NCBI GenBank assembly: GCA_003484955.1 | Contig: DMZH01000001.1 | Location: 23,848 to 87,847 of the forward strand | DNA: 64,000 nucleotides | Reading direction: 5' to 3' | DNA from: Candidatus Woesebacteria bacterium | Lineage (GTDB): Bacteria > Patescibacteriota > Microgenomatia > UBA8517 | Part shown: one piece after another, positions 10,593 through 44,433 of the stretch | Numbering within the stretch: the stretch's first letter is position 1 | How the letters are laid out: every line of letters begins with the position of its first letter | Position numbers and translations under genes: made by a program | Notes under the pieces: generated by a model | The model's input: the letters and a program-made list of their open reading frames with translations, nothing else | The model's database searches: none | What the model was told of the DNA's origin: nothing

Positions 10593-10598
10593 ATCTGT

Positions 10599-11315
10599 CT
10601 ACTTCTTCTTAAAACTTATCGTCCTTGCCCCAACCAAAAATTCATACATTGGTCCCCAGACAAGACCCCATGAGAGCCCCCAAAGCATTTCTGTCCAAGG
10701 TATGTGTTTAAAAATAATTATCCCCTGCTCCGTTCCCGACAGTTTCCAGATTCTCTCTACCCAAAAGTGACTTTGAGGGAAAAACTCCTGTCCCAAGAAA
10801 TAGATTATAAACATTGTACCGGCTACCAAAAATGCTGAACCTACAGCATGAATTAACAAATCCGGCCGCAAAACTAACATAACTATCGCAAATATAACCA
10901 TTCCAATAGAACTCGCATAAATTGAGTTTAAGCCTAATAAGTTATTCAAAATAATCATGGCAAACCCTTCTATTGCAAAAAAGACCAATAAAAACAGTTC
11001 ATGCCTTCCTTTTTTCTCCACACATTTACAAACACCTCTTACAAATAAAGACTCATAGGCAAAGGCCCCTATCCCTCCGATGGAAAATCCAAAGAGTAAA
11101 TCTTCAACTCCGCCAATAATCGGTAACGGCAATGCGATTTCAGGCTTCCAATAATCCGCAAAATACCAGATCTCAGAAATCGGGCCAAATGAAGCCGTAA
11201 TCAAGCTCATAATCAACATCGGACGCCTTAGGCTTTTTACTCTCCAGTAGATAAATAACCACACAGCCAGAAAGAAAAAATTCGCAATGAGATAAGTATA
11301 TTTGTAATTAGCCAT
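10599..11315 (-). CDS. Polytopic membrane protein, lycopene-cyclase-domain (CrtYcd)-like
   Basis: It has multiple TM helices. Two acidic motifs in loop regions (GGVEDLLFGF, GPMYEFLVG) resemble the PxE(E/D) repeats of this family. This is a weak call. It overlaps the ABC ATPase gene by 8 nt. Confidence 0.35.
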   Translation of the reverse strand: MANYKYTYLIANFFFLAVWLFIYWRVKSLRRPMLIMSLITASFGPISEIWYFADYWKPEIALPLPIIGGVEDLLFGFSIGGIGAFAYESLFVRGVCKCVEKKGRHELFLLVFFAIEGFAMIILNNLLGLNSIYASSIGMVIFAIVMLVLRPDLLIHAVGSAFLVAGTMFIIYFLGQEFFPQSHFWVERIWKLSGTEQGIIIFKHIPWTEMLWGLSWGLVWGPMYEFLVGARTISFKKK

Positions 11316-12153
11316 TATAATTGGTCTGATTTAAGTTACCGACAAACTTTTCAGGTTCTTTTTTGAATTCGTTCATACACCCCTCGGAGCAAAAAAAGTA
11401 TTCTTTCCCCTTAATGGTCGTTTTATTAGCCCCTTTTTCTATGCTCATTCCACATACAGGATCGGTTGTCATTTTACCTATTTCTTTAAATATGCCATCT
11501 TCAAGCCATAGGATTCTATCCGCCACATCTCTGATTCTATTGTCATGAGAGACGATAAGAACGCTTTTTCCTTTCTTTTTGGCGACTTCTCTTAGGAGTT
11601 CCATTACTTCGTGTCCGACTTTAGAATCCAAGTTAGCTGTCGGCTCATCGGCCAAAATTATATCCGGGTCATTAACCAGAGCCCGTGCAATTGCCACCCT
11701 TTGTTTCTCTCCTCCGGAAAGATTTGCCGGAATATCGTTCATTCTGTCTGCCAATCCCAAACGCTTCAGAATCTCTTCGGACTTTTCTACCGCATTACCC
11801 CCATTTCCGGCAAATTCCGCAACCACCTGAACATTTTCTTTTGCAGTTAGGGAAGCCAAAAGAAGAAATTGCTGAAAAATAAAGCCTACCTCGGAAAGTC
11901 TTTTTTTGGTTAATATGTCCTCACCCATTCCGCCAATATCACTTCCGTTTAAAATAACTTTACCTGAGGTTGCCTTTAGTATCCCTCCACCTATTGAAAG
12001 GAGAGTCGTTTTACCGGAACCTGAAGGTCCCATTATTAAAACAATTTCTCCCTTTTTAACTTCCAGATCGACTCCGTTGAGCGCTTTCACCTGGGCATGA
12101 CCTTCACCAAACGCCTTGGTTATTTTGTGTAAGTCTAAAATTATGTTTGTCAT
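11308..12153 (-). CDS. ABC transporter ATP-binding protein (MacB/LolD type) with a C-terminal YHS metal-binding domain
   Basis: Walker A reads GPSGSGKTT, the signature is LSGGEKQRVAIARAL and Walker B is ILADEPTANLD. The C-terminal 45 aa read DPVCGMSIEKGANKTTIKGKEYFFCSEGCMNEFKKEPEKF, matching the YHS/TRASH pattern. Confidence 0.85.
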   Translation of the reverse strand: MTNIILDLHKITKAFGEGHAQVKALNGVDLEVKKGEIVLIMGPSGSGKTTLLSIGGGILKATSGKVILNGSDIGGMGEDILTKKRLSEVGFIFQQFLLLASLTAKENVQVVAEFAGNGGNAVEKSEEILKRLGLADRMNDIPANLSGGEKQRVAIARALVNDPDIILADEPTANLDSKVGHEVMELLREVAKKKGKSVLIVSHDNRIRDVADRILWLEDGIFKEIGKMTTDPVCGMSIEKGANKTTIKGKEYFFCSEGCMNEFKKEPEKFVGNLNQTNYNG

Positions 12154-12176
12154 GACAAAGTTGTCACAAACTCCGT

Positions 12177-13340
12177 CTATGATCTAAAAACCATAGCGGG
12201 ATCTGTTTTGGCAATTCTTGTTATTGGAATATAGGTCGCAACAAAGCTCATGATAATTGAGGAAGCAAATGCCAAAAGATATATTTGTAAGTTAAATTCC
12301 ACAACCATATTGATTACATCCACCACCAACTTCGAAACCAAGAAAGCCAGTATTACACCAAAAATATAACCAATAATCGATGACCACAGGGCTTGTTCAA
12401 AAACAATCAAAAAAAGTTTCTTTCTGGAGGCGCCGATAGCTTTCAGGACACCATATTCCTTTATTTTTTCCATTGTTGCCGTGTAAATAGTCAACCCCAC
12501 AACAACCGCTCCCGTAGCAAAACCGATAATTGTAATTACAAAAATAATCGGGACAAATGTATCCATTAAAGCTTTAGCATTGCTCTTGGCAAAGTCGCTT
12601 TTTTTATAAGCGGTGATTCCCGGAATGTTTGACTCCAATTTCTCCGCTATTTCTGAAGCACGGGAGGGATCGGTCAATGAAATGAGGATGAAATTCGCCC
12701 TGCCTTTTTGCCGCAAAATTTCCTGCGCTTCATCCAAATCAACAAATGCCCTTGTATAAAGCATCATGTTGTTTTTATCCGTAATTCCGACAATAGTGAA
12801 TACCTCATCAAATACTTCGACCGAATCGCCAATTGTAAGTCCGTTTTGTTTGGAAAAAACCCTATCAACGATAATTTCGCGTTTTCCGGGAGTTTTGGTT
12901 CCGGACAAAAGTATCGGCGGGCCCCCGACACCCGTTTCCGTATCAAAACCCATGAGGGTGATTGTTGCCTTTTTTGCTTTTTTATTTTCACCTTTCTTGC
13001 GTCCCGCAAAGTCTACGATTTTACTTCCGTCTTCTTCCCTAACCCGGACATTTGTGGTTCTATTTACAAGACCATATACTTTTCCGCCGCTTATGGTTTC
13101 CACTTGGCTCATTTTGTTTGCATCAAGAAGCGAAAAAGTGTGTGACATGTCGGTTACACCCTCCTGAGCGATAACCAAATCTGCAGCGAAACTCTCAACA
13201 TAATCTATAAGAAGTCTGTTGAAAGCATTATAGATACCAAGAAGAAATACTATCAGGAGAATCGAAAAGGCTACACCCCCAACCGAAACAAAGAATCTGG
13301 TTTTTTCAGCAAATAAATTTTTGCGGGCGATACTCACCAT
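12177..13340 (-). CDS. ABC transporter permease, FtsX/MacB family
   Basis: An N-terminal TM is followed by a large extracytoplasmic domain and a C-terminal FtsX-like 3-TM bundle. It overlaps the adaptor gene by 7 nt. Confidence 0.8.
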   Translation of the reverse strand: MVSIARKNLFAEKTRFFVSVGGVAFSILLIVFLLGIYNAFNRLLIDYVESFAADLVIAQEGVTDMSHTFSLLDANKMSQVETISGGKVYGLVNRTTNVRVREEDGSKIVDFAGRKKGENKKAKKATITLMGFDTETGVGGPPILLSGTKTPGKREIIVDRVFSKQNGLTIGDSVEVFDEVFTIVGITDKNNMMLYTRAFVDLDEAQEILRQKGRANFILISLTDPSRASEIAEKLESNIPGITAYKKSDFAKSNAKALMDTFVPIIFVITIIGFATGAVVVGLTIYTATMEKIKEYGVLKAIGASRKKLFLIVFEQALWSSIIGYIFGVILAFLVSKLVVDVINMVVEFNLQIYLLAFASSIIMSFVATYIPITRIAKTDPAMVFRS

Positions 13341-14338
13341 CTGATTATTTCTCCATCCTCAACTCCTTCCAGAACTTCCCAATTTACACCGTCAAAGATT
13401 CCAAGTTTTATCTTCTTCTCACCTAAACCGGTTTTAACAAAACTATTCCCTCCATTTTTGTAGACAGCTTCTTTTGGAACCAGTAAAACATCTTTCCTAT
13501 CTTCAAGTGTAATTTCCGTATCTCCGTTTATTCCGATGATCGGCTTTTCGGGAAAGTTTTCAAGTTTTATTCTGACACCGACAACGTCACCACCTTCAGT
13601 TTGAGTCACGGACTGTGCAATATAATAAACTTCACCATCAAATTTTCTATCCGGATATGCATCGAAAGAAACTACTGCCTTTTGACCGACTTTTACATTC
13701 TGTATATTCTCTTCGTCTACCTCTGCCGAAAAGTAAACCGTGTCAGGATCAATCAAGACTATTCCGGGTTCCAGAGAAAATGCTGAAACCCATTCGTTAA
13801 CTTCTAAACTTTGAGTTATAACAACACCCGAAAAAGGAGCATAAAGTGCACTATCGGTGATAGACTTTTTAGCACTCTCCACAGATTTTACTGCTTTATC
13901 TTTTTTTACTTCCGCTTGAGTTCTTGTTTGTTTTTGAGTGTAGGTTTCATCCGTATCGTGTCCTTTAACCTCATCATATATTTTGGCAAGCTCTGCCTCT
14001 GCTTGACGCAAATCGTCTTGTGCGCGGCCTAAAGACAAAGACAGCTCTTCTACGTCAAGACGGGCCAGAACTTCATCTTTCTTAACCTGATCTCCCTCAG
14101 AAGCTTCGACCGAATCCACCCGTCCCGTTGCCTTAAATGAAAGTTCTGCTTTTTTTTCGGCATCAAGTTTTCCGGAAGCCGATAAAAAAGAGCGTATATC
14201 GCCCCTGCCTATTTTACCCTCATTTTTCGGATTTACCTGAATTAAAAAATAAGCCAGAAGCACGGCTAGAACGAGTCCAATCAGGATAAAAGGCTTTTTG
14301 AAAAAAACTTTCATTTTTAGAATAATACCTGTCTTCAT
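13334..14338 (-). CDS. Periplasmic adaptor (HlyD/MacA membrane fusion protein family)
   Basis: It has a signal/anchor, a coiled-coil-rich region (LRQAEAELAKIYDEV) and a beta-barrel C-terminus. It forms an operon with the MacB-like permease and ATPase. Confidence 0.75.
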   Translation of the reverse strand: MKTGIILKMKVFFKKPFILIGLVLAVLLAYFLIQVNPKNEGKIGRGDIRSFLSASGKLDAEKKAELSFKATGRVDSVEASEGDQVKKDEVLARLDVEELSLSLGRAQDDLRQAEAELAKIYDEVKGHDTDETYTQKQTRTQAEVKKDKAVKSVESAKKSITDSALYAPFSGVVITQSLEVNEWVSAFSLEPGIVLIDPDTVYFSAEVDEENIQNVKVGQKAVVSFDAYPDRKFDGEVYYIAQSVTQTEGGDVVGVRIKLENFPEKPIIGINGDTEITLEDRKDVLLVPKEAVYKNGGNSFVKTGLGEKKIKLGIFDGVNWEVLEGVEDGEIIRW

Positions 14339-15366
14339 ACAAAGCTTGCGGTGATACCCAAAGATTGGTCAGTTTTTTGAATAGATTTTTGAGGATCCTG
14401 CTCAATGCCTGAGATTGCTCTGATGGCATCTATATTTTCAGGAATAACTATTGCCTCATTGTGAACTTGATAATAAAAAGCGACGTCCTTGCCCTCCACA
14501 TGCAATAAATCCTCCCAAAATGCGACTTCCCACATATCCGCCCTTGGCCTACCCAAATCCCGCATGAGTTCAGCCAATTGATTCTCTGCCGTCAGTCCGT
14601 CTTTATAGTTAACAGCAACCACCCTCGGACTTGATTTCAAAATTTTTACCACATCATCCTTAGACATCTCCTGATTTAGACGCAGAAAAGCCAAATGAAG
14701 ATGCCCTATTGTGGTCGGAACAGCAATCGCTACCGATAGAATATTTAAGTTCGGTATAACTGTTTGGGCATCCGGTCCTTGATGAGAAGGAATCGAATCT
14801 TCCAAAACTATTGTTCCCAAAGGGCCTTTTAAGTGTGAATCAATGGGGTCTGTCCCGCGCCTTGCCAGTGCCACGTATGCCTTTTCAAGAATCCCTTTTT
14901 GGGTAAACGGGAAAAGAACTCTACAAATCGCCGTAGTATTGCAGGAAACCACTCTTAGACTTTCCTTTCCTATAGCATCTTTATAATTTACCTCCGAAAC
15001 AAAAGAAAATCCGGTAGTGTCGTGCGCTTCTCCCCCCTGAAATATTGATTTAACCTTAGCAGTATCATATTTTGCCTTGTTTTCTTTTCCTATTCCTGCC
15101 GGAGTTGCATCAATTACTACATCTATACTGTTCATGAAATGATCAAAATCACCATTACATCTTACCTGCGCTTTCATTAAATTGCTGCAGGCCTCGGTGT
15201 CTGCTCCAAATATTCTGATTCCTTTTTTGTTTGCAGAAAATAATCGATAATCAGGAGTCCTTGCGGTTACTCCGATAAGTTCCATATCATCTTGCAGTAG
15301 AACAGCATCGGCAATTCTTTTTCCGATTACACCATAACCATTAATACCGACTTTTATTTTATCCAT
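14335..15366 (-). CDS. gap: Glyceraldehyde-3-phosphate dehydrogenase, archaeal type II
   Basis: VGINGYGVIGKRIADAV is the NAD-binding motif. The catalytic SCNTTAI is present. The length and pattern fit archaeal-type GAPDH. Confidence 0.8.
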   Translation of the reverse strand: MDKIKVGINGYGVIGKRIADAVLLQDDMELIGVTARTPDYRLFSANKKGIRIFGADTEACSNLMKAQVRCNGDFDHFMNSIDVVIDATPAGIGKENKAKYDTAKVKSIFQGGEAHDTTGFSFVSEVNYKDAIGKESLRVVSCNTTAICRVLFPFTQKGILEKAYVALARRGTDPIDSHLKGPLGTIVLEDSIPSHQGPDAQTVIPNLNILSVAIAVPTTIGHLHLAFLRLNQEMSKDDVVKILKSSPRVVAVNYKDGLTAENQLAELMRDLGRPRADMWEVAFWEDLLHVEGKDVAFYYQVHNEAIVIPENIDAIRAISGIEQDPQKSIQKTDQSLGITASFV

Positions 15367-15369
15367 AAA

Positions 15370-15525
15370 TTAACAACATCCTTTCTTCTCTTTTGATTTC
15401 TCAAGGTCTGACTTTCCAAGTTTATATAAATATCTGCCGACTAAAGACTTGGGAACTACATCTTCCTTTACGTCAGATCCTTTAATCTTACCTTTTTTTG
15501 AATGATTTGAACAACAATCAGACAT
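15370..15525 (-). CDS. Unannotated 51-aa Lys-rich peptide with terminal Cys pairs (MSDCC...KKGCC)
   Basis: I translated it by hand from the minus strand: MSDCCSNHSKKGKIKGSDVKEDVVPKSLVGRYLYKLGKSDLEKSKEKKGCC. The ATG lies 5 nt after the stop of the YHS gene. It falls below the 60-aa track cutoff. Confidence 0.35.
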   Translation of the reverse strand: MSDCCSNHSKKGKIKGSDVKEDVVPKSLVGRYLYKLGKSDLEKSKEKKGCC

Positions 15526-15530
15526 AATAA

Positions 15531-15725
15531 TTACTTGCCTTTTCTAAACTTTTCCCTTTCTTCCTCGGGAACCCAATAATCGGGATATGCGTCAAATAAG
15601 TGTTTATCGTTTTCCGTGTCAAAATAATACACCTTCCCTAAAAACTCCGATGAAAACTTCATTCGGGATTTGGGCATAACCATCCCACACACGACATCTT
15701 TTACCATTTCTTCCGGATTGTCCAT
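15531..15725 (-). CDS. YHS-domain small protein
   Basis: DVVCGMVMPKSRMKFSSEFLGKVYYFDTENDKHLFDAYPDYW matches the YHS pattern. The start is trimmed to the ATG at 15725, which overlaps the upstream stop by 1 nt. Confidence 0.6.
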   Translation of the reverse strand: MDNPEEMVKDVVCGMVMPKSRMKFSSEFLGKVYYFDTENDKHLFDAYPDYWVPEEEREKFRKGK

Positions 15726-15982
15726 TACTTTGTAAATCGATTGTAGAGCCAGGCAAACAGCCATCCTGTGAGCCAGGAAACGACCGTAAAGCTAACAAGT
15801 CCCAACAAAAATCCTTCCGGTGCACTTTTCCAAACTCCGCTCAGGTCTAACATATGCATCCAGCTTTCCGCCACGGATTTATATAAACCAGGAAGCCAGG
15901 AGGCAACCACAAAACAGCCTACAAAATAAATAGCTCCGAGTAAACCACTGGCATTTGCAAAGGCAGATTCTTTTAATTTCAT
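15725..15982 (-). CDS. Small two-helix membrane protein
   Basis: It has two hydrophobic helices and is co-directional and contiguous with the YHS gene. Confidence 0.4.
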   Translation of the reverse strand: MKLKESAFANASGLLGAIYFVGCFVVASWLPGLYKSVAESWMHMLDLSGVWKSAPEGFLLGLVSFTVVSWLTGWLFAWLYNRFTK

Positions 15983-15999
15983 TTATCTCACCCCCTTTT

Positions 16000-16857
16000 T
16001 TATAATTCCCAATTGAAAACTACATTTTTACCGTCTATCCCTTTTATGTTAAGCCCCACGCTTGAGGCTTTACCGGACAACTTATTAAAAACCAGATCTC
16101 CCGAAACATGATGCCCCGCGCTTTCCCCCGTCCATTTTACAGGCTTGTAGATGTTACCCGTGTCATCAACCACAACTACTATCTTTGTATAGTCATAGTT
16201 TAGATCAATTGAATGATTATCGAGTGAAACCGTAAAAACCATTTCTCGCCCACGAGCCAGTTGTTTGGGGGTTATTTCCATATCCACAACACCAACCTGC
16301 TTTACCTGAGCCTCCATCGGATTTACTTTTACGCTGGCGCCAAGTGAGGACGGCTTTTTGGCAAACACATCTTTTGTTATAGTAAACACGCCGAAAGCCA
16401 GAACCAAGACGGCTGATGACATAAATAAATATTTAAAGACGGGTTTATCCGTAAGACGCATAAGTTTGGCCATATAAAAAATTCCCAGAATATTCATAAG
16501 TACGCCAAAAATCAAAAAGTCTTTCTGATAGGCAGTTAAGACCAAACCCAAAGCCGACACTCCCAAGATCGGCAAAAGATCACTGGCATGGTGAACACAA
16601 CAAAGAAGCATTGAAACACCGGACACTGTCGATGAACTTCCAACCAGACGGAAACCCTTCCGGACAAGCTGAAAAAGACCCATCTGCACACCGAAGCTTA
16701 ATATGAGGAGACTTATCCAGGGCTGCAAGATTACAAACTGATCAAGCGAATGACTAATGCCTCCACTCAATAAAGAACTCAGAAGGAAATAAAAAAGTGC
16801 CAGTCCCAATGATCCAAAAATTGACCATTTAGTAAAAATTTGCCAAGGTTTTGTCAT
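16000..16857 (-). CDS. Membrane protein with a C-terminal extracytoplasmic beta-rich domain
   Basis: It has ~5 TM helices including LLCCVHHASD. The C-terminal ~110 aa are soluble and contain HH. It overlaps the SCO1-like gene by 4 nt. Confidence 0.5.
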   Translation of the reverse strand: MTKPWQIFTKWSIFGSLGLALFYFLLSSLLSGGISHSLDQFVILQPWISLLILSFGVQMGLFQLVRKGFRLVGSSSTVSGVSMLLCCVHHASDLLPILGVSALGLVLTAYQKDFLIFGVLMNILGIFYMAKLMRLTDKPVFKYLFMSSAVLVLAFGVFTITKDVFAKKPSSLGASVKVNPMEAQVKQVGVVDMEITPKQLARGREMVFTVSLDNHSIDLNYDYTKIVVVVDDTGNIYKPVKWTGESAGHHVSGDLVFNKLSGKASSVGLNIKGIDGKNVVFNWEL

Positions 16858-17531
16858 TTATTCAGTTTTGAAATGTTTGTGAGAAGTTCCTTGTTGTTTA
16901 TCCTCATATCCGGATCGTCTTTTTCATAGCGTATAACCCCATCTCTATCAACAACTACATATGTATGCCCCGGAAATTGGCCCCTGTGCATCGAGGAATC
17001 AACTGTCAAGACCCCGTAACTTTCCGAAACTTTTCTGTCAGAATCAAGTAAGACCGTGGCTGAGGCAATTTTTGGATCCTCCCTGACTACACCATCCCAA
17101 TCGGCTTTTGAATCTACAACGACAACCAAAACAACGGTATTCTCCTTTGAAAATCCTGAATCTTTTGTAAAAGCATTTATTTGATCCCAGCAGGAAGGAG
17201 CACACATGGCTCCCTCACTGAAAAACAAAACCACATTCTTTCCCTTAAAACTTGCAAGATCAACTTCGCGTCCGTCATATGACTGAAGTTTAAAGAGAGG
17301 AGCCGGAGAGCCCAGAAGTGATTGAAATTTGGTATTATCAGCGGGTGGGGGCGGAGCATGCATACCTGCCATATCATCCACCTCAGCCGGCGTTGTCGAA
17401 GCGCCCGCAATTTTACTGTTGCCGGATTTAAGAAGATCCAGTGCCAATATTGCCACAACCAATACCGCGATAAATCCAAGCGCGATTCCGGCTGAAATTA
17501 AAACCTGTTTAATGCTTATACTCTCTTCCAT
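16854..17531 (-). CDS. Membrane-anchored thioredoxin-fold protein, SCO1/SenC-like (CxxxC)
   Basis: A TM anchor is followed by FFSEGAMCAPSCWDQ, a C-x3-C like the SCO1 CPDVC motif rather than a thioredoxin CxxC. A downstream His is in HTYVVVDRDG. Confidence 0.5.
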   Translation of the reverse strand: MEESISIKQVLISAGIALGFIAVLVVAILALDLLKSGNSKIAGASTTPAEVDDMAGMHAPPPPADNTKFQSLLGSPAPLFKLQSYDGREVDLASFKGKNVVLFFSEGAMCAPSCWDQINAFTKDSGFSKENTVVLVVVVDSKADWDGVVREDPKIASATVLLDSDRKVSESYGVLTVDSSMHRGQFPGHTYVVVDRDGVIRYEKDDPDMRINNKELLTNISKLNK

Positions 17532-17537
17532 AATTTT

Positions 17538-19733
17538 TTATATCTCAATCAAATCCTTTTCTGCACGCTTCAAAAGTACCGCGTTAGCGGCAACAATAAT
17601 AGATGAAATGCTCATTAAAAGCGCTGAAAATTCAGGCCTGAGGGTTATGCCGAATTTAGGATATAAAACTCCCGCCGCAATCGGAATGGCGAGTAAGTTG
17701 TAGACACTGGCCCAAACCAGGTTTTCCTTCATTTTTCTCACAGTGGCCTTTGAAAGTTTGATCGCCCGCAAAATATCGGCGGGATCCGATTTCATTAAAA
17801 CAACTTTTGCCGTCTCAATCGCAACATCGGTTCCCGCTCCTATTGCGATTCCTATATCGGCCTGCGCAAGGGCTGGAGCATCATTAACCCCGTCTCCAAC
17901 CATACCTGTAAATTTACCCTCTTTTTGCAGTTTTTTGACATAAAAGGCCTTATCTTCCGGCAGAACTTCGGAAAATATCCTATCGATACCGAGCTGCTTG
18001 CCAATTATTTCTCCCGTCCTTTTGTTATCCCCAGTAATCATAGCTATTTCCAACCCCAGTTCTTTCATGCGGGCAATAGCTTTCTTGGCATTTTTCTTAA
18101 TCGGATCGGAGGCGGCGGCAATTCCTGCAATCCTATTATCAACCGCCAAAATCATAATGGTTTTCCCTTCCGAGAGAAGCCGGTCGATGTCTTTTTGCAG
18201 AGGGCTTACATCGAGCTTACGGTCGTTCATTAGTTTTACTGTTCCGACCAATATCTCTCTACCGTCGACAACTGCTTCAACTCCGTGGCCGGCAAGATTT
18301 TTAAACTTCTCAATTTTAACGGGGATGGATATTTTTCTTCGTTTGGCTTCTTCCAAAACGGCCAGGCTCAGAGGGTGGGAGGACTTTGCCTCGGCTCCGG
18401 CATTAAGTCGGATTATTTGATCCTGAGTAAATCCTTTGACTGCGACAATATCTGTAATTTGAGGTTTTCCCTCAGTCAAAGTGCCGGTTTTGTCCAAAAC
18501 AATCGATTGCAATTTAGAAACCTGCTCAAGAGTTGGTGCATCCTTAATTAAAATATTATGTTTGGCCCCAAGCCCTGTACCGACCGCAACCGCGGTAGGT
18601 GTGGCAAGTCCCAAAGCGTCCGGACAGGCAATTACAACTGTAGAAATCGCGAAAGTTAAGGCAAAAAGAATTGGCTGCCCCAAAATGAAGAACCAAATTG
18701 CAAACGTTAAAAGTCCTCCCCCAACGGCAACAATCACTAAATACTGCGCAAATCGATCGGCAATCTTTTGTCCCGGCGCTTTTGAGTTCTGTGCGGTTTC
18801 CACAAGTTTAACAATCTGTGCAAGCGCAGTGTCTCCGCCAACCTTGGTGGCTTTAAACTTAACCGACCCCGAAGTATTAATTGAACCGCCAATTACTTTA
18901 TCGCCGATCCCTTTAACGACAGGCAAAGATTCCCCCGTTACCAACGACTCGTCGATAGCAGTTTCACCTTCAATGATTTCTCCGTCAACCGGTATCTTAT
19001 CTCCCGGCTTTAAGATTAAAATATCCCCGACTTTAATTTCTGATGTTGGGACAAGCTCTTCCCTGCCTCCGACAAGACGTCTGGCCTGAGGCGGAACCAG
19101 ATCAAATAAAGCCTGAAGGGCATCGGTGGTTCCACGGCGGGATTTCATTTCCATCCAGTGTCCGAAAAGAACAAATGTAATAAGAAGGGCAGCCGCTTCG
19201 TAATAAGAATCATTGCTTCCGATAAAAGTCAGAAGAACACTGAAAGAATATGCCGCCGTTATTCCGACGGCGATAAGAACGGCCATATTTAAGGTCTTTG
19301 CCTGAAGAGCCTTTACCGTTGAATAAAGAAAAATCCAGCCTGAATAGAAAAAGACCGGTGTTGTTAAGATTAGAGCAACCCAGGGATTTGGACGAATGAT
19401 GGAAAAATAAACAATCGGCAGTACAAAAATCAATGCAAAGAAAAACTTGTTTCTAATATCCTCCTCCATGAGAGCCGCCATTTCCCGCCCCGCGATTCCT
19501 CCGTGTTCCATACCCATGGCCATAGTCATCCCCATCTTTGTTTTTTCCCACCAAGCCATCTCTGTCACCGGTTTCATTTTGTGCATATCATGTCCGGCAT
19601 GTTCATTTTTTACCTCTTTCTTTTTACTTTTGACCTCTACCAATTCCATCCCGCACTTGGGGCAAGTTCCCGGTTCGTTCATCACAACATCCGGATGCAT
19701 AGGGCAAATATATTTATTCATTTCGTGTTTCAT
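17538..19733 (-). CDS. copA: P1B-type copper-translocating ATPase (CopA-like) with an N-terminal CPxH...CPxCGM metal-binding domain and a CPD transmembrane motif
   Basis: Motifs YICPMHPDV...CPKCGM, Met-rich MGMTMAMGMEHGG, TGES, DKTGTLT, GDGVNDAPAL, TM7 YN and TM8 MSISS are all present. The TM6 motif is CPD (tgt ccg gac), not CPC. Confidence 0.9.
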   Translation of the reverse strand: MKHEMNKYICPMHPDVVMNEPGTCPKCGMELVEVKSKKKEVKNEHAGHDMHKMKPVTEMAWWEKTKMGMTMAMGMEHGGIAGREMAALMEEDIRNKFFFALIFVLPIVYFSIIRPNPWVALILTTPVFFYSGWIFLYSTVKALQAKTLNMAVLIAVGITAAYSFSVLLTFIGSNDSYYEAAALLITFVLFGHWMEMKSRRGTTDALQALFDLVPPQARRLVGGREELVPTSEIKVGDILILKPGDKIPVDGEIIEGETAIDESLVTGESLPVVKGIGDKVIGGSINTSGSVKFKATKVGGDTALAQIVKLVETAQNSKAPGQKIADRFAQYLVIVAVGGGLLTFAIWFFILGQPILFALTFAISTVVIACPDALGLATPTAVAVGTGLGAKHNILIKDAPTLEQVSKLQSIVLDKTGTLTEGKPQITDIVAVKGFTQDQIIRLNAGAEAKSSHPLSLAVLEEAKRRKISIPVKIEKFKNLAGHGVEAVVDGREILVGTVKLMNDRKLDVSPLQKDIDRLLSEGKTIMILAVDNRIAGIAAASDPIKKNAKKAIARMKELGLEIAMITGDNKRTGEIIGKQLGIDRIFSEVLPEDKAFYVKKLQKEGKFTGMVGDGVNDAPALAQADIGIAIGAGTDVAIETAKVVLMKSDPADILRAIKLSKATVRKMKENLVWASVYNLLAIPIAAGVLYPKFGITLRPEFSALLMSISSIIVAANAVLLKRAEKDLIEI

Positions 19734-19802
19734 AATTATTTTACTAAGACTAAAACTCTCCAGTTAAATCCTATCACTTTCCACACACGCATTCCACGAC
19801 AG

Positions 19803-19964
19803 TTATTTGATGTATTTTTCGGGGTTCATGTCAAAACGGTCCTTGCAACTTTCAGAGCAGAAAAAATACGCTTTATCTTTGTATTCCACCTCGTATTTTG
19901 TTTTCTCTGGAAGTTCCATTCCACAGACCAAATCCAATAATAAAGATTGTACAGATTTTGACAT
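19803..19964 (-). CDS. Unannotated 53-aa YHS-domain protein between csoR and copA
   Basis: I translated it by hand: MSKSVQSLLLDLVCGMELPEKTKYEVEYKDKAYFFCSESCKDRFDMNPEKYIK. The ATG overlaps the csoR stop (TAATG). Confidence 0.6.
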   Translation of the reverse strand: MSKSVQSLLLDLVCGMELPEKTKYEVEYKDKAYFFCSESCKDRFDMNPEKYIK

Positions 19965-20230
19965 TATCTTCTTTTAAATACTTTCAGCAGTTCGTCTACC
20001 GCCTTTTTCTTATTGCTTTTGAATTGTTCCGAAACATGAATCGTAAGATGTCTTTCCAAAATTAGGCCGTCCAGACTTTTAAGAGAATTTTGAATTGCCA
20101 GGCTTTGGTCAAGGATGTCCGTACAATATTGATCCTGATCGATCATTTTATTAAGGCCGTCCAACTGCCCTTTAATAATATTGATACGTTTTTCCGCAGA
20201 GGCCTTGTTTTCGTCTCGAAGATGTTTCAT
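19964..20230 (-). CDS. csoR: CsoR/RcnR-family metal-sensing transcriptional repressor
   Basis: It is an 88-aa helical protein. YCTDIL...ERHL carries the C-H-C ligand pattern of the CsoR/DUF156 family. Confidence 0.8.
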   Translation of the reverse strand: MKHLRDENKASAEKRINIIKGQLDGLNKMIDQDQYCTDILDQSLAIQNSLKSLDGLILERHLTIHVSEQFKSNKKKAVDELLKVFKRR

Positions 20231-20241
20231 GAGTTATACTC

Positions 20242-20261
20242 TATACCCGTGGGGGGGTATA
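20242..20261. promoter_or_regulatory. GC-rich inverted repeat TATACCC-N6-GGGTATA within the csoR promoter, a candidate CsoR operator
   Basis: The repeat tataccc/gggtata flanks a G7 tract. It lies between a TTGACA -35 (minus strand, 20262..20267) and the csoR ATG at 20230, and resembles known CsoR operators. Confidence 0.45.
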
Positions 20262-20282
20262 TGTCAAGCGTTAAGCTTTATT

Positions 20283-21185
20283 TTAAGCTCCACAACTTCC
20301 TCCGGTCGGCTGTCCCGGCAGCGGCCCAACTATGCTTTGAAGCCTTTGGGCACCCGTCGCTGAAGAGAAATCTTTCCCTAAAACTTTTTTGGCATCAACC
20401 TTGTCCCACGAAATATTCTGACGATCAAAATAAATTGCCGCTGTCAAATAATTATCCGGGAACCAGAAAGAGTTTAGTTTAAGTATGTTGCGATAAATCT
20501 CATCGTCGGACAGATTTTTTGCAACCATCATCTCAATTGCGCCGAGAGCAGCCATTCCATGATTACAATCGGGGAACCATGTGGGATTATCACAGCAAGG
20601 CCTATAAATATTCTGGGCTATGTCCGCAACTCTTTTTTGCTGATCGGGGGTGAGTGCTATCAGATTAAATTTATTTAAATACTTTGTCGCATCCCCCTTG
20701 GCTAAAGTCCAGCCTCCTGTAGAGGCGAAGTTGCCTTCCTGGCCCTTATATTCATTTCCAAAAGGCCCGTCCGTATAAATAATTGATTTTTGTGCCAAAC
20801 CTATTGCCCAAAGAAGATCGACCACAAACTGCGAATTTTCCGAATTAATTGTAACAGGCGCGTCTGTACCTCCCTCAAGAATTTTCTTCTGCTCGGGAGT
20901 TGCCTGAACGGCCTCTTCAAATTTTGCCTGGTCTATTACTCCGGCCTCAACAAGCTCCTTACCCAAGTCTCCCCATGAAATTGGAAGCGTAAAGCCTTCT
21001 TTTGGAGTAACCGCATCGGCGAGAGCCTGAAACGCTGTTCTTTCTTTGGCATTTTTCTTTGCTGTCTGATAATCTTTTATCCCAGTTAAAAATTTTGGAG
21101 AACTCATTCCAAGTACAAGCCCTCCCATTCCCACTGCCAAAAACAGCAGCACCAGTACAACTATAAATAAAATATTTTTCTTCAT
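20283..21185 (-). CDS. Secreted protein with a Cys-rich motif (PCCDNPTWFPDCNHG)
   Basis: A signal/anchor peptide is present. CC-x8-C-x-H and a C-terminal GGSCGA are present. No family was recognised. Confidence 0.45.
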   Translation of the reverse strand: MKKNILFIVVLVLLFLAVGMGGLVLGMSSPKFLTGIKDYQTAKKNAKERTAFQALADAVTPKEGFTLPISWGDLGKELVEAGVIDQAKFEEAVQATPEQKKILEGGTDAPVTINSENSQFVVDLLWAIGLAQKSIIYTDGPFGNEYKGQEGNFASTGGWTLAKGDATKYLNKFNLIALTPDQQKRVADIAQNIYRPCCDNPTWFPDCNHGMAALGAIEMMVAKNLSDDEIYRNILKLNSFWFPDNYLTAAIYFDRQNISWDKVDAKKVLGKDFSSATGAQRLQSIVGPLPGQPTGGSCGA

Positions 21186-21718
21186 ATGAAAAAGTTTATC
21201 AAAATATAAATCACAAGGCTTAATACTACCATACTTCCCAAACTAAAAACTACCCTTTGATATGGAAAGTAAACTTTTCCGGCTCTTTTGATTAAAAAAT
21301 TATCACCAATATCAACCAAGTAGAATAAAATAGCTCCTGCAAGCATTCCAAAAGTAAGCTTATCCAATCCAAAAATCTGAGTCATTCGGATGACAAGCTG
21401 GAATTTATAAAATGACCATATGGTTGAAGCAAAAACAAGAATATATATGGCGGGCTTTAATATTTTTTTATATTTTTCAACCTGCTTGATTTTTTTTGAG
21501 ATCAACCAGGAATATAACCAAAAGCTACTTGAGCCGAGAAGTGTGGCTATCCACACACCGGTAATAGAATCATCTATTCCGACCCATCTGGTTAATGTCA
21601 CCCCCGCTGCCGCACCGGCAACACAAAGCGGACAATGAGCCGAAACCGACGAGGGTGTTGCGATGAAATTCACCGTAAACAGGGAGAATAAAGTAACCAG
21701 GAGAATCTTCAGTTTCAT
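21182..21718 (-). CDS. Polytopic membrane protein with an HCPLC motif after the signal peptide
   Basis: A signal peptide is followed by SAHCPLCVAGAAAG and ~4 TM helices. It overlaps both neighbours by 4 nt. Confidence 0.45.
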   Translation of the reverse strand: MKLKILLVTLFSLFTVNFIATPSSVSAHCPLCVAGAAAGVTLTRWVGIDDSITGVWIATLLGSSSFWLYSWLISKKIKQVEKYKKILKPAIYILVFASTIWSFYKFQLVIRMTQIFGLDKLTFGMLAGAILFYLVDIGDNFLIKRAGKVYFPYQRVVFSLGSMVVLSLVIYILINFFI

Positions 21719-22239
21719 TTGACTACCTCCCCGTCAAACTCCAGTATTTTGTAACCGACATCAAAGAAAATCATTATGACTCTGTCAACTGCGCCAATCC
21801 CTTGCGGGCCATGGGCTGCCGGATCAAATTCAAAGATAACCTGAGCAGTCTCTCCGGCGGGAAGATCGAAATCAAGCAAGGGATTAAGATCCCCATTCAT
21901 CTCCATCCCATAAAACTTTGTTTCCTTATTGCCCAATTTTACTTTTGCCACCGTACACATACAGGAGGTTGTTATTTTTCTGAGTTTTATGGCGGAGGTT
22001 GAGGTGTTTTTTATATCAAAACTTTTCGAAATTATTCCGCCTCTGTACGGCACTTTACCCAAATCAATCCTCCCTGACGGGCTAGCCTCCAAATTCGCCG
22101 CTTCGACATTGTTTATATAACTGTCTTTTCCATTACTGTTACTGCCACTGGAAGCCCTGGTCATTAAAAACGCGAATCCTCCAACCAGGAGTATCGTTCC
22201 TACAATTATGGCCAAAATAGTCTTACCTTCTTTTGTCAT
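21715..22239 (-). CDS. Membrane-anchored DUF1573-like protein (TSCMCT motif)
   Basis: A TM anchor, an S/N-rich linker, then ITTSCMCT...FDPAAHG. This is paralogous to the C-terminal domain of ORF 5298..6029. Confidence 0.55.
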   Translation of the reverse strand: MTKEGKTILAIIVGTILLVGGFAFLMTRASSGSNSNGKDSYINNVEAANLEASPSGRIDLGKVPYRGGIISKSFDIKNTSTSAIKLRKITTSCMCTVAKVKLGNKETKFYGMEMNGDLNPLLDFDLPAGETAQVIFEFDPAAHGPQGIGAVDRVIMIFFDVGYKILEFDGEVVK

Positions 22240-22347
22240 TTATTTTGCGATGCCTCACTGCCGTGGTTATTTTTCATATGTATACCCTAACGTCCCGTAA
22301 GACACATGTCAAGTATTAAATCCGCGGGCCAACATTTTGTAATTAAG

Positions 22348-23382
22348 TCAACCCATGACTTTTTCAGCTCCGGGGATTTTGTGAACAAGATAAGAAAGAC
22401 CAAACGATAGCGATGTAACTACACCGAAAAATAACGGGTCAAAAAGAAACTTTCCGGCAACGTCAGAACCCAGTAAATTAAATAAAGATTTAGCAAAGGC
22501 CGTCCAGACACCTTCCAAAACGGCAACATGAACAAAAAATACAAAAAAGGAATGCTTGGAAAATCTTTCGATAATTGAGTTTCTGTTTTTTGTGTTTTCA
22601 AAAAAATAATAAAGCGTCAAACCAATTGAGATTGTGTACAGAAAAGTACTTGGACGCCACTGCGAGTAGTAGGAAAGATAGTTTCCGGTTGCCAGGAACC
22701 GGGTTCTCCCCTCCCAAAAAACAAATAGACCAAGAAGTGCCGTAATTACAGGTAATATATGTTTCCATTTATTTACAAAAATATTAATTTTTTCTTTGTT
22801 TCTGGCAGAAACAATACCGATGATAAAAAAGAAGTATGCCAAAATTGCAATGTGCAATGGATCCGGAAACTTGAATTCGGCCACACCATAATCAAGATAC
22901 AAAAGATAGATTTGCAAACTTCCCAGAAATATCAAAACCGGTAGTTTAGTAAAATATTTATACAATTTATGCAAAAGTGGAAATACCATGTAAAAAATAC
23001 AAAGGGTCGGAATAAAATATAATTGATAAGATGCGTTACCAGTTAAAATAACGCGAAGAAAATTATCGTCATTACTACTGTAGATAAACAAATAATATAT
23101 AAGGCTCCAGACTGCGTAAGGAATAAATATCTTTGAAAAACGCTTTTTGATAAACGACCAATAATCGGTCCCTTCTTTGTAGTTTAGTTCCAAAACAAAA
23201 CCCGAGAGGGTAAAGAAAAGAGGAACCGCAAAACGGGCAATTTGATTTAAGAAAAGCGTCCAGGAAAACCCAATAATATTAAACTTTGACGCCTCCAGTG
23301 TGCGTGTTGTTGTGTGGATAAGAAGTACCGCCAAGATTGCGATCGTTCTTAGCGAATCCAGGGATTTAATACGTTCTTTCAT
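22348..23382 (-). CDS. Acyltransferase family 3 membrane protein
   Basis: LDSLRTIAILAVLLIHTTT at the N-terminus and ~10 TM helices match Acyl_transf_3. Confidence 0.75.
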   Translation of the reverse strand: MKERIKSLDSLRTIAILAVLLIHTTTRTLEASKFNIIGFSWTLFLNQIARFAVPLFFTLSGFVLELNYKEGTDYWSFIKKRFSKIFIPYAVWSLIYYLFIYSSNDDNFLRVILTGNASYQLYFIPTLCIFYMVFPLLHKLYKYFTKLPVLIFLGSLQIYLLYLDYGVAEFKFPDPLHIAILAYFFFIIGIVSARNKEKINIFVNKWKHILPVITALLGLFVFWEGRTRFLATGNYLSYYSQWRPSTFLYTISIGLTLYYFFENTKNRNSIIERFSKHSFFVFFVHVAVLEGVWTAFAKSLFNLLGSDVAGKFLFDPLFFGVVTSLSFGLSYLVHKIPGAEKVMG

Positions 23383-23390
23383 TGGGGGAA

Positions 23391-24404
23391 TTATTTCAGA
23401 TAGAGGTCAAAAAAGTCAATTGTCCTTTTCATAGCCAAGGTAAAACTTTGGTTGATATCGTGATTGTTGCCCGGATACTCGAAATACTCAACATTTTTTC
23501 CGACAGCTTTCAGTTTGTTATAAAGATTTTTTGAAAAATCCGATGGTACCTGTGAGTCGGCAAGGCCGACTTCAATCTGGACAGGCGTTTTAATATCAGA
23601 AAGATATGTGAATGGATCAATTGAATTCCAAAAGGCAGGGTTTTCGGCAGGGGTTTTGAAAGTTTTAATTAAAAAATCCCTGTTTTGATTGCGAAGCCGG
23701 AGATCCTCAGCGTCAGGTTTATATGAAACTTTATCTTGCCAGTTAAACATTAAATCGCTATATGGTGCCACAACACCAGCCCAAATTGAAGCCGCTTTAA
23801 TATCTGTCCTGTTTATAACCAGATCTTTTAAAGTAATGTAACCGCCCATTGAATGTCCCCAAACACCGATTTTGTTTGGATCGGCAAGGGTGTATTTTCT
23901 GATTGAGGAGATAGCATTAAGGTCGTCAATTATATAGTCGGGTGAGAAATATGAACTTGTTGGCTCCCCTTCACTTTTTCCGTTACCGCGATAGTTTGGT
24001 TTAAAGACAATGTAACCATTTTTGGCAAACGCGTCAGCATAGGCAATATAGTTTCCATCCGGAGTGTATCTTTCGGGAATTATGTAGCCATGGTTTAGGA
24101 TAATTACAGGCCAGCCTTCTGCGGGTTTTACTCCATTCGGCACAAAAAGAAGTGCATAAAGCTTCAAGCCATCAGATCTGTAGGAAACAATATAGCGGCT
24201 ATAGGTCTTTTCGGGAGACAAGGTCTCTTCAATGGTAATATTGCTTCCGGGATAATCCCTTTGGCGCATAGACTCAACACTAAGAGGATTTGATAAGTTT
24301 CTGATGGCAGTTTGAACGGAAACGCTTATATTGGGCCGAAAAAAGCCAATAATAATTGCCAGTACTGCTATAAAATTGGAAACTATAGTTTGGACAGTGT
24401 TCAC
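23391..24404 (-). CDS. Alpha/beta hydrolase (S9/dienelactone hydrolase-like)
   Basis: It has an N-terminal anchor. The nucleophile elbow reads GHSMGG, and downstream Asp/His are present. Confidence 0.65.
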   Translation of the reverse strand: MNTVQTIVSNFIAVLAIIIGFFRPNISVSVQTAIRNLSNPLSVESMRQRDYPGSNITIEETLSPEKTYSRYIVSYRSDGLKLYALLFVPNGVKPAEGWPVIILNHGYIIPERYTPDGNYIAYADAFAKNGYIVFKPNYRGNGKSEGEPTSSYFSPDYIIDDLNAISSIRKYTLADPNKIGVWGHSMGGYITLKDLVINRTDIKAASIWAGVVAPYSDLMFNWQDKVSYKPDAEDLRLRNQNRDFLIKTFKTPAENPAFWNSIDPFTYLSDIKTPVQIEVGLADSQVPSDFSKNLYNKLKAVGKNVEYFEYPGNNHDINQSFTLAMKRTIDFFDLYLK

Positions 24405-24426
24405 TTTTCAATTATAACCGCCTAAT

Positions 24427-44100: not shown

Positions 44101-44433
44101 GTGGTATACTCTTAGCACTCTGGAGAAAGGATGATCGCTGTATTTGAGCCTAGCTCTAAATACAGAGGAAAGTCCAGGCAGCAGAAAGCAGGGTGTCCAG
44201 CGCAAGCTGGAGACGGGCTTAAGAGCAATCTTAGGTTTGGCCAGTGAGAGCCACAGAAACTATGTCGATTCTTTTACCCTAAAGGTAGAAGGAAACGAGT
44301 GAAAAGAGGCAATCCTCCCCGCTGCAACCTCCGAAAGGGACGTTTGAGGCGCTTTCCCAAGTCCCGAGGTTCGAGGGCGTTAGATGGATGATCATCGAGA
44401 AACAGAACCTGGCTTACTAATCTTCAGAGTACA
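44101..44433 (+). ncRNA. rnpB: RNase P RNA (bacterial, reduced form)
   Basis: AGGAAAGTCCAGGC sits at 44167 and ACAGAACCTGGCTTAC near the 3' end. These match the universally conserved GGAAAGUCCGGGC and ACAGAAnCCGGCUUA regions at the expected spacing. A terminator hairpin follows directly. The ends are approximate. Confidence 0.6.

Follow-up and report, generated by a model that had tools for sequence, protein, structure and literature searches.

A 64,000-nucleotide (nt) stretch of a Candidatus Woesebacteria contig (GenBank DMZH01000001.1), which we call the window, carries a cluster of eight genes. They encode a CsoR-family repressor, a small YHS/TRASH protein (YHS1), a P1B-type ATPase, a membrane-anchored redoxin, a fusion protein that we call p5, a DUF5676 protein, a second YHS protein (YHS2) and a peptide bounded by Cys pairs (the CC peptide). 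All genes of the cluster lie on the minus strand, and coordinates are those of the window (Table 1). A preliminary description of the same DNA had read these genes as a copper-handling operon in a genome resembling those of the candidate phyla radiation (CPR). Listing and translation of the open reading frames (ORFs) confirmed all eight at the coordinates given there. Independent gene callers also predicted the eight genes, including those of 53, 64 and 51 amino acids (aa), on three public contigs of identical sequence; two of the small genes had originally been found by hand. The identical ATPase protein is recorded on 23 public contigs, including a Rifle-aquifer scaffold and a Joint Genome Institute (JGI) groundwater metagenome.

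The eight genes are tightly packed, with junctions of -1, 69, 6, -4, 17, -1 and 5 nt in transcription order. The earlier statement that the genes overlap or are 1-5 nt apart holds for four of the seven junctions and fails for the three of 69, 6 and 17 nt. TAATG or ATGA overlaps link csoR to yhs1, the redoxin gene to the p5 gene (whose start overlaps the redoxin stop by 4 nt) and the DUF5676 gene to yhs2. Tight co-directional packing goes on downstream, with gaps of 3, -4, -7, 23, -8 and 6 nt, through genes for a glyceraldehyde-3-phosphate dehydrogenase (GAPDH)-like protein, an HlyD adaptor, a MacB permease, an ABC ATPase, a lycopene-cyclase-like protein and an ATP-cone/Mrr protein. Upstream of csoR, a 52-nt gap is followed by three further packed genes, and the whole of 9750-25281 is a single tight co-directional gene string. 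The 5' end of the cluster is set by its promoter. At the other end, a promoter and terminator scan found no terminator-like site 3' of the 51-aa gene. Because packed co-directional genes continue there and no such site intervenes, the 3' end of an eight-gene operon is undefined. The proposal of a copper operon in a CPR genome is supported by CsoR with its box, a YHS/TRASH protein and a P1B ATPase; at the 3' end, the eight-gene limit is arbitrary.

Table 1. Features of the copper cluster and its flanks in the window, in transcription order
Feature	Coordinates	Strand	Evidence or remark
Upstream module of three genes	20283..22239	-	same conserved neighbourhood
DUF1573 protein with CxC motif	21715-22239	-	PF07610 33.4 bits
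178-aa membrane protein with HCPLC	21182-21718	-	between DUF1573 and 300-aa genes
300-aa anchored protein	20283-21185	-	invariant RPCC-N-x6-C-N-H-G, C-terminal GG(S/G)CG
Promoter with embedded operator	20238..20267	-	sequence reading and promoter scan
CsoR-family repressor, 88 aa	19964..20230	-	PF02583 75.6 bits (cutoff 22.8)
YHS1, YHS/TRASH protein, 53 aa	19803..19964	-	PF04945 60.7 bits
P1B-type ATPase, 731 aa	17538..19733	-	PF19335, PF00122 and PF00702 matches; TIGR01511
Membrane-anchored extracytoplasmic redoxin, 225 aa	16854..17531	-	AhpC-TSA 68.6 bits, Redoxin 61.4 bits
p5, fusion protein, 285 aa	16000..16857	-	domain of four transmembrane segments, anchor segment, extracytoplasmic beta-sandwich
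DUF5676 protein, two transmembrane segments, 85 aa	15725..15982	-	PF18926 69.9 bits (cutoff 27.6)
YHS2, 64 aa from ATG at 15725	15531..15725	-	PF04945 31.4 bits (cutoff 30.3)
CC peptide, 51 aa, Lys-rich, soluble, MSDCC...GCC	15370..15525	-	gene callers; four orthologues
Archaeal-type GAPDH-like gene	14335-15366	-	between exporter and eight genes
Candidate linked downstream exporter, MacB-type ABC	11308..14338	-	Pfam matches; gaps 3, -4, -7, 23 nt
HlyD-type adaptor	13334-14338	-	Pfam
MacB_PCD/FtsX permease	12177-13340	-	Pfam
ABC ATPase with complete C-terminal YHS/TRASH domain	11308-12153	-	PF04945 59.1 bits

The promoter of csoR consists of a -35 hexamer TTGACA (20267-20262) and a -10 hexamer TAGAGT (20243-20238), and the sequence TATACCCCCCCACGGGTATA (20261-20242) lies between them. 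This is the inverted repeat TATACCC-N6-GGGTATA that had been noted earlier. It spans 20 nt, and the window has no second copy of it when up to 2 mismatches are tolerated (chance would give 0.10). In seven other loci, boxes of the ATACCC..GGGTAT type precede the csoR homologue by 23-61 nt, and in one locus (L079) such a box lies 28 nt upstream of the ATPase gene. The repeat matches the published CsoR boxes TATACCCnnnnnGGGTATA of Bradyrhizobium and ATACCCCnnnGGGGTAT of Corynebacterium (PMC5057107) and is a textbook case of a predicted CsoR box. From its position, repression would naturally act through promoter occlusion. Since the csoR ATG is only 7 nt past the -10 hexamer, the mRNA is probably leaderless.

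The repressor was correctly placed in the CsoR family, as the PF02583 profile confirmed. Its metal site, described earlier as C-H-C, had to be corrected. The protein has a single Cys, and its ligand set is x-C36-H61-H65 (C-H-H), with Y35 and E80 in the second shell. In the alignment to M. tuberculosis CsoR (2hh7), C36 and H61 fall on C36 and H61, and H65 falls on C65. The canonical x-C-H-C triad of Cu(I)-sensing CsoR is absent, and the same C-H-H arrangement, with His at the third ligand position (Z), is found in Thermus thermophilus CsoR (3aai). The features of the Thermus type are all present, namely the triad, Tyr and Glu in the second shell, and adjacent genes for a P1B pump and a candidate chaperone. 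Among 37 homologues from related loci, C36 is invariant and H61 is kept in 32, as is Y35; E80 is kept in 36. Although the gene neighbourhood is the same, position Z alternates between Cys (18 homologues) and His (15). The window repressor also has a His at position 3, and its literal reading is H3-C36-H61-H65. H-C-H-H is the fingerprint of RcnR. Only 4 of the 37 homologues have His3, which argues against an RcnR-type site, and the RcnR equivalog model of NCBIfam gives 39.3 bits against a cutoff of 138. With second-shell residues and an operator that are CsoR-like, an RcnR-type Ni/Co sensor was judged improbable. In CsoR, second-shell residues of the Y35/E80 type link the binding of Cu(I) to the release of DNA, and for this reason a recent review regards the x-C-H-H cluster as Cu(I)-sensing, with possibly relaxed selectivity (PMC11672702). 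The Thermus protein (H-C-H-H) responds in vitro to Cu(II), Zn and Cd too (PMC5057107). A subgroup of csoR homologues upstream of the ATPase gene (loci L007, L008 and L017) has C-x-C at the first ligand position (e.g., SCTCLLDQ...EKYLKSDV), and Tyr/Asp or Asn replaces both His ligands. This is not a copper site of a known kind, and these proteins are possibly thiol or persulfide sensors.

The pump belongs to the P1B ATPases (PF00122 194.9 bits, PF00702 107.7 bits, TIGR01525 594.8 bits), and the copper subfamily model TIGR01511 scores 573.6 bits as compared to 387.9 bits for the Cd/Zn model. Its best match in the PDB is A. fulgidus CopA (548 bits). The preliminary label of a CopA-like ATPase with DKTGT is right as to the copper-group profile and the DKTGT motif, but the fourth transmembrane (TM) segment carries CPD in place of CPC, and the N-terminus is an HMBD domain in place of HMA. 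The TM4 motif is C370-P-D372, and its acpda aligns to ACPCA of A. fulgidus CopA. The HMBD is zinc-ribbon-like (PF19335 47.6 bits; CPMHP...CPKCGM) and is followed by a His/Met-rich stretch; the Pfam profile search found no HMA domain at the N-terminus. Of the features that define P1B-1 CopA, TM4 CPC and N-terminal HMA are missing, and TM5 YN(x)4P (YNLLAIP) and TM6 MxxSS (M-S-I-S-S-x5-N) are present. The TM4 motif is not CPH either, as in P1B-3 CopB, and in the N-terminus three or four His are interspersed with Met. CPD is not peculiar to the window protein. It is found in 81 of 81 relatives, MxxSSx5N in 80 and HMBD in 71, and the Met-rich stretch KMSMTMAMGMEHGG is conserved among them, the common segment being written KMSMTMAMGMEHGGLAGREMA. 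By profile, the pump is a member of the copper P1B group and is neither a canonical CopA nor a CopB. We infer Cu(I) as its substrate, possibly along with Cu(II) or Ag(I). The only mention of CPD pumps found in the literature concerns three Rhizobiales pumps (Xanthobacter, Nitrobacter and Bradyrhizobium), noted as a 'novel' subtype beside CopB-type P1B-3 (PMC5552934); none is characterised.

Between the repressor and the pump lies YHS1, whose assignment as a 53-aa YHS protein was borne out by the profile score and by the cysteines C14-x21-C36-x3-C40, a complete TRASH pattern. The yhs1 start codon overlaps the stop codon of csoR (TAATG). Among 26 homologues, C14 and C36 are invariant and C40 is kept in 24. 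YHS1 has no TM segment and is predicted to be cytosolic. None of the real genes of the window has an HMA motif, and hence an HMA-type CopZ is missing there. The TRASH chaperones CopM and CopT adjoin CopA in archaea (PMC7830388). Because of the full motif, the lack of a TM segment, the missing CopZ and this archaeal precedent, YHS1 is proposed as the obvious candidate Cu(I) chaperone.

The next gene had been described as SCO1-like. Its product scores 11.9 bits (E 0.22) on the SCO1-SenC profile PF02630, of which the cutoff is 22.8, and is instead a redoxin of peroxiredoxin (Prx) fold, for which an SCO-type structural match appears only at rank 52. NCBIfam and the source annotations also give redoxin or peroxiredoxin. 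In 44 redoxin sequences, F-x-E-G-x-M-C110-x-P-x-C114-W, S-S-M-H182-(R)-G-x-x-P-G-H189-(T)-Y and H58, which lies in a Met/His linker, are invariant. Among these residues, C110xxxC114 and H189 might correspond to the CxxxC and distal His that serve as Cu ligands in SCO proteins. When the protein is aligned to 2-Cys Prx, the catalytic Pro and Thr of PxxxTxxC correspond to E106 and A111; of the catalytic residues, Cys (C114) and Arg (R183) alone are retained. With the catalytic Pro and Thr lost, a canonical peroxidase function is doubtful. In 14 of 15 informative related loci, a DsbD_TM gene (PF02683, CcdA-like) lies immediately upstream of the redoxin homologue. A CcdA/DsbD_TM conduit with an extracytoplasmic thioredoxin-like reductase is a classical arrangement. 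The window itself has no DsbD_TM gene. SCO1 membership was rejected by profile, fold ranking and conserved gene partner together, and the surprise that had been expressed at an SCO1-like protein in organisms thought to lack haem-copper oxidases is lost with it. From the DsbD_TM partner and the single N-terminal TM segment, the protein is read as an anchored surface thiol-disulfide reductase, perhaps with a metal contact, as its invariant His182, His189 and Met residues suggest.

The earlier reading of p5 as a 5-TM protein with an HH-containing extracytoplasmic domain was confirmed, since five hydrophobic segments precede a soluble domain. The 4-TM domain has an invariant C86-C87-x-H89-H90 in TM3, and the beta-sandwich has invariant H215, H249 and H250. 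The exact 285-aa protein is deposited as ACD_13C00022G0020 ('uncultured bacterium'). In most related loci, p5 is represented by two adjacent genes. One encodes the membrane half, which measures about 140 aa, crosses the membrane four times and has an invariant M-x-x-C-C-x-H, and the other an anchored sandwich half of about 150 aa with an invariant H...D...W-G-x-x-x-G-H-H-x-x-G-x-L-x-F. A full HMMER scan recovered 2540 representative relatives in fused and split forms, 1460 of them below 1e-10; PLSDB (plasmids of cultivated bacteria) gave no match.

The two parts of p5 belong to uncharacterised families. No Pfam family passes (DUF5643 is sub-threshold), and PDB profile searches gave no solved sequence relative for either half. 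Homology to CopC/CopD, YcnJ or MerP/MerT-type proteins was not detectable in the Pfam and PDB profile searches. For the membrane domain, MerT/MerF was rejected (hhalign 0.1-0.8%, with approximate MerT and MerF sequences; no MerF in the PDB profile search), and a relationship to DsbD_TM was not accepted at an hhalign probability of 25%. The beta-sandwich has no sequence homology to solved copper proteins that could be found; its top structural neighbour is the copper protein CrdA, a weak fold resemblance only. Some relatives bear additional domains, namely an N-terminal YHS (P0058, P0085 and P0097) or two HMA domains (P0019), which the predicted N-in topology puts in the cytosol. These fusions, and the YHS2 genes that usually adjoin the p5 genes in related loci, link p5 to cytosolic metal-binding modules, as in metal transporters, and suggest that p5 is a new copper-handling membrane protein. 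In other family members (P0080 and P0398), the N-terminal fusion partner is a membrane domain resembling ICMT/PEMT methyltransferases.

The last three genes encode small proteins. The DUF5676 protein has two TM segments, and its C23 and H43 are kept in 30 and 29 of 30 homologues; nothing was found on this family in the literature. YHS2, for which gene callers use the 64-aa start, passes PF04945 by a narrow margin, which makes the earlier call of a second YHS protein a borderline one. It keeps only the Cys of CGM, and FDTEND replaces FCSxxC, a variant shared by 3 of 18 homologues. The CC peptide, correctly proposed as a gene, belongs to no family. The ratio of nonsynonymous to synonymous differences (pN/pS) was 0.14-0.58 in ten pairwise comparisons of the peptide and its four orthologues, and the peptide is accordingly a real coding gene under purifying selection. 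The N-terminal CC is present in all five sequences and the C-terminal CC in three. GGCCH, CCS and SCC tails also terminate YHS proteins in other loci, which ties the vicinal-Cys tail to the same metal-handling repertoire.

The cluster has many sister loci. We searched the window proteins by tblastn against the 80 closest ATPase loci of a species-level genome collection, counting hits on the ATPase strand. The ATPases of these loci are 68-98% identical and come almost all from Patescibacteria, which supports the CPR-like nature of the genome. The host groups are Daviesbacteria, Woesebacteria, Levybacteria, Amesbacteria, Collierbacteria, Gottesmanbacteria, Curtissbacteria, Paceibacteria, Saccharibacteria and WWE3. 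Homologues were found for csoR in 35-36 of the 80 loci, DUF5676 in 27-29, the upstream 300-aa protein in 29, YHS in about 25, p5 in 24-25, the redoxin in 19-20 and DUF1573 in 19. Unbiased clustering of the remaining ORFs in related loci, checked by Pfam, added DsbD_TM (29 loci), a DsbA-like Thioredoxin_4 protein (28), ICMT (22), a histidine kinase (21) and a response regulator (17), Polyketide_cyc2 (20), a multicopper oxidase with a Met-rich insert (19), DUF305 (18), DUF2933 (13), and BlaI/CopY (8) with M56 (11). Gene order is shuffled among genomes, and three sub-modules recur: DsbD_TM followed by the redoxin; DUF1573 followed by DsbD_TM or the 178-aa HCPLC protein and then the 300-aa protein; and the ATPase followed by the p5 membrane domain and the p5 sandwich. 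The window cluster is thus one variant of a modular, shuffled 'copper island' present in many Patescibacteria. The functional linkage of the accessory genes is supported by the recurrence of their homologues, on the same strand, beside the same ATPase type in dozens of Patescibacteria loci. Copper as the metal is supported by the canonical copper-resistance markers of the sister variants.

The three genes upstream of csoR are no less a part of the island than the eight of the cluster. In 11 other loci, a DsbD_TM gene follows DUF1573 in the position that the 178-aa gene occupies in the window. The 178-aa HCPLC protein may be a functional replacement of DsbD_TM; as a relative of DsbD_TM it was rejected (hhalign probability 0.3%). 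The 300-aa protein belongs to a family of at least 5775 clusters that has no Pfam model and is annotated only as 'hypothetical'. The invariant motifs are FASTGGW, RPCC-N-x-T-x-FPDCNHGMA and the C-terminal GG(S/G)CG, and relatives occur in loci L021 and L027 and among P0368-P0396. A recurrent subset is fused to an N-terminal rhodanese, which hints at extracellular sulfur or persulfide chemistry.

We consider it probable that the cluster is a copper-inducible operon for export and envelope protection, a variant of the copper island of Patescibacteria, and that it does not serve cytochrome-oxidase assembly. At low copper, a tetramer of the CsoR-family protein (C36/H61/H65) would sit on the TATACCC-N6-GGGTATA box and block RNA polymerase, and binding of Cu(I) would free the repressor from the box. 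YHS1 would take the part that an HMA-type CopZ plays elsewhere, as a cytosolic chaperone passing Cu(I) to the HMBD and the His/Met-rich region of the ATPase, and the CPD-type pump would then export it. In a cell without an outer membrane, the anchored MCxPxCW redoxin might keep surface thiols or copper ligands reduced, fed in relatives by the CcdA-like DsbD_TM protein. The CCxHH membrane domain and His-bearing beta-sandwich of p5, together with YHS2, may move or hold surface copper, and the DUF5676 protein and the CC peptide could be further Cys/His copper-binding accessories. The sister loci place all of this in a copper context, with multicopper oxidases in 19 loci and DUF305 in 18, HMA proteins and CopY/BlaI repressors. 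Family memberships, motifs, the place of the operator and the conserved linkage of the genes are observations; to these the model adds the metal, the hand-off by the chaperone, the direction in which p5 would transport and the substrate of the redoxin.

Several points weigh against this export and protection function. Asp is a harder ligand than Cys, and the CPD Asp and the Thermus-type C-H-H site leave strict Cu(I) specificity not established. It is spacing alone that suggests co-transcription of the eight genes, and an internal promoter might lie in the 69-nt gap before the ATPase gene. Of the three TRASH cysteines, two are missing from YHS2. The predicted model of p5 has a pLDDT (predicted local distance difference test) of 69, with the CCxHH helix below 50. 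Finally, the DsbD_TM, multicopper oxidase and DUF305 genes of the sister loci were not found in the window.

The doubt about specificity leads to a different or broader metal, such as Ni, Co, Zn, Cd or Ag. All of H3, C36, H61 and H65 occur in the window repressor, which has partial similarity to RcnR, and Asp stands for the second CPC cysteine in the pump, a subtype left uncharacterised in its Rhizobiales members (PMC5552934). The response of the Thermus H-C-H-H protein to metals other than Cu(I) is a published case of such breadth (PMC5057107). Nevertheless, H3 is confined to 4 of the 37 homologues, Tyr35 and Glu80 are conserved, and the box has interrupted GC-rich arms flanked by ATA, as in published Cu-CsoR boxes. 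The TM5 and TM6 motifs of the pump are of the copper type, the Cu model outscores the Zn/Cd model, and the Met-rich segments and the multicopper oxidase and DUF305 neighbours point to copper. We regard another metal as quite improbable, and we give no more credit to the view that csoR, yhs1 and the ATPase gene form the sole functional unit and that the downstream genes are packed neighbours with unrelated envelope roles. It is true that the string of 9750-25281 holds clearly unrelated genes (GAPDH and lycopene-cyclase-like) and that gene order differs between genomes. In spite of this shuffling, 19-29 of the 80 loci have homologues of the redoxin, of the two halves of p5, of DUF5676, of YHS2 and of the 300-aa protein no farther than 8 kb from an ATPase gene of the same type and on its strand. 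The YHS- and HMA-fused relatives link p5 to metal handling, and invariant Cys/His/Met motifs are found in all the accessory proteins.

Copper might also be handled for supply, which is close to the earlier suggestion of a different cuproenzyme. The ATPase would then be a slow Cu(I) exporter like CopA2/CcoI, with a TlpA/Sco-like redoxin and a PCuAC/CopC-like beta-sandwich, and the system would load a surface or secreted cuproprotein such as a multicopper oxidase or a cupredoxin. The combination of a CxxxC/His redoxin with a metal-binding beta-sandwich parallels Sco/TlpA with PCuAC. In the sister neighbourhoods, 19 loci have multicopper oxidases, and a few cupredoxins also occur there, including three with a CuA-type Cx3Cx3Hx2M. 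Supply is hard to reconcile with a cluster that is under a CsoR repressor and for this reason turned on by excess copper, and the SCO1 profile and fold tests fail. Moreover, the multicopper oxidases bear Met-rich inserts typical of CueO-type resistance enzymes, DUF305 and CopY-type repressors indicate resistance, and neither a cuproenzyme gene nor a CuA motif was found in the window. Supply seems to us unlikely, and copper-inducible export with envelope protection is the reading that we retain.

An extension of this reading concerns p5, which elsewhere is encoded by two adjacent genes. It could be a hitherto unrecognised ATP-independent device for the translocation or relay of Cu(I), from cytosolic YHS or HMA domains via the intramembrane Cys-Cys/His-His site to the surface domain. 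A system of surface copper and thiol management specific to CPR bacteria would then be made up of p5, the RPCC-CNHG family, the MCxPxCW redoxin and the CPD pump. We offer this as a tentative and rather doubtful proposal. Such a system, if true, would possibly be relevant to life attached to host cells.

Other genes near the copper cluster and its sisters are of note. The MacB-type exporter, 1 kb downstream of the eight genes in the same gene string, is possibly linked to them. Its ABC ATPase ends in a YHS domain, and a YHS-ABC fusion of the opposite domain order occurs in L063; a metal-sensing or metal-loaded ABC exporter is suggested. Beside the copper island of L019 (about 3067, +) lies a gene for an ArsR/SmtB-type winged-helix protein with a C-terminal YHS, which could be a metal sensor with YHS input. 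In L013, L025, L045, L058 and L072, proteins of 450-620 aa are encoded beside the ATPase; they begin with an HMA domain, continue with a multi-TM part that contains conserved Cys, and close with one or two cupredoxin-like domains ending in FSC(M/S)MGMY.G.F.V. Small secreted cupredoxins with the CuA-type C-x3-C-x3-H-x2-M occur in L032 (119-496) and L074 (10216-10803) (Cupredoxin_1 43.7 bits; COX2 20.4 bits, just below cutoff). A CuA-type cupredoxin as a conserved partner, as a 25-locus cluster seemed to show, was rejected. Only 3 of 40 members have the motif, single linkage having merged HMA proteins, the HMA-membrane-cupredoxin fusions and a few cupredoxins. Many related loci contain two or three P1B ATPase genes. 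Many records of metagenome-assembled genomes titled 'uncultured Gammaproteobacteria', 'Pseudomonadales', 'Ignavibacteriaceae' or 'Methanosarcinales' (L004, L009, L010, L012 and others) carry a CPR-type locus at 70-98% identity, and these titles look like placeholders or errors.

Elsewhere in the window, a second 731-aa ORF at 2323-4518 encodes a glycosyltransferase-like protein and was rejected as a second pump. A gene for an Fe/Mn superoxide dismutase, annotated with Sod_Fe_N and Sod_Fe_C on the identical contig, lies at 8063-8674 (+), at a distance of 7 kb from the copper genes. Such an enzyme is noteworthy in a CPR organism that is presumed to be fermentative. The sole Rfam family above its gathering score in the window is RNase P RNA class A at 44119-44432 (+) (RF00010, 110.6 bits).

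The core of the cluster resembles the Gram-positive CsoR-CopZ-CopA operons, such as B. subtilis copZA/csoR, M. tuberculosis cso and Thermus thermophilus csoR-copZ-copA. In these, too, a repressor of the CsoR family accompanies a P1B copper ATPase and its small cytosolic chaperone, with a promoter-overlapping GC-rich inverted repeat of the ATACCC..GGGTAT type, and the C-H-H site is as in Thermus CsoR (3aai). In the window, however, the chaperone is of the YHS/TRASH and not the HMA type, the pump has HMBD and CPD and not HMA and CPC, and five more conserved accessory genes come after the core and three before it. The archaeal cop cluster (CopR/CopT TRASH regulator, CopM/CopT chaperone and CopA) likewise has a small TRASH/YHS metallochaperone gene beside a copper ATPase (PMC7830388). 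It differs in its Lrp-HTH-TRASH regulator, in contrast to the CsoR-family regulator, bacterial host and extra extracytoplasmic accessory genes seen here. With P1B-3 CopB and the Rhizobiales 'CPD' subtype (PMC5552934), the pump shares a CPx motif whose third residue is not Cys, YN(x)4P, a TM6 of the MSxSS type and a His-containing N-terminus, to which the CPR clade adds the HMBD zinc-ribbon-like domain and the conserved Met-rich segment. The redoxin differs from the systems of CcdA/DsbD_TM with ResA, TlpA or pneumococcal Etrx1/2 in having CxxxC (MCxPxCW) rather than CxxC, and no DsbD_TM accompanies it in the window. SCO1/SenC proteins share with it the thioredoxin-superfamily fold, CxxxC and a conserved downstream His, but it falls below the PF02630 cutoff and matches SCO structures only far down the ranking, and its partner is DsbD_TM and not a cytochrome oxidase. 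On CPR copper operons, nothing specific was found in the searchable literature. The core is a known kind of system; the composition, with a TRASH-type chaperone, an HMBD/CPD pump, a CxxxC redoxin of Prx fold, the CCxHH/beta-sandwich protein, DUF5676 and RPCC-CNHG, is undescribed there.

The cluster offers four tractable targets, namely the CPD-type P1B ATPase, the CCxHH/beta-sandwich family, the CxxxC redoxin of peroxiredoxin fold tied to CcdA, and the very large unannotated RPCC-CNHG family. Correcting the SCO1 mis-annotation matters as well, since that label would wrongly imply respiratory copper enzymes in CPR bacteria. These bacteria have very small genomes, and this lineage nonetheless devotes at least 11 adjacent genes to copper and thiol handling. 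Together with a pump that is 68-98% identical across distant CPR classes, this points to copper stress or surface copper chemistry as a strong and general selective pressure on these episymbionts.

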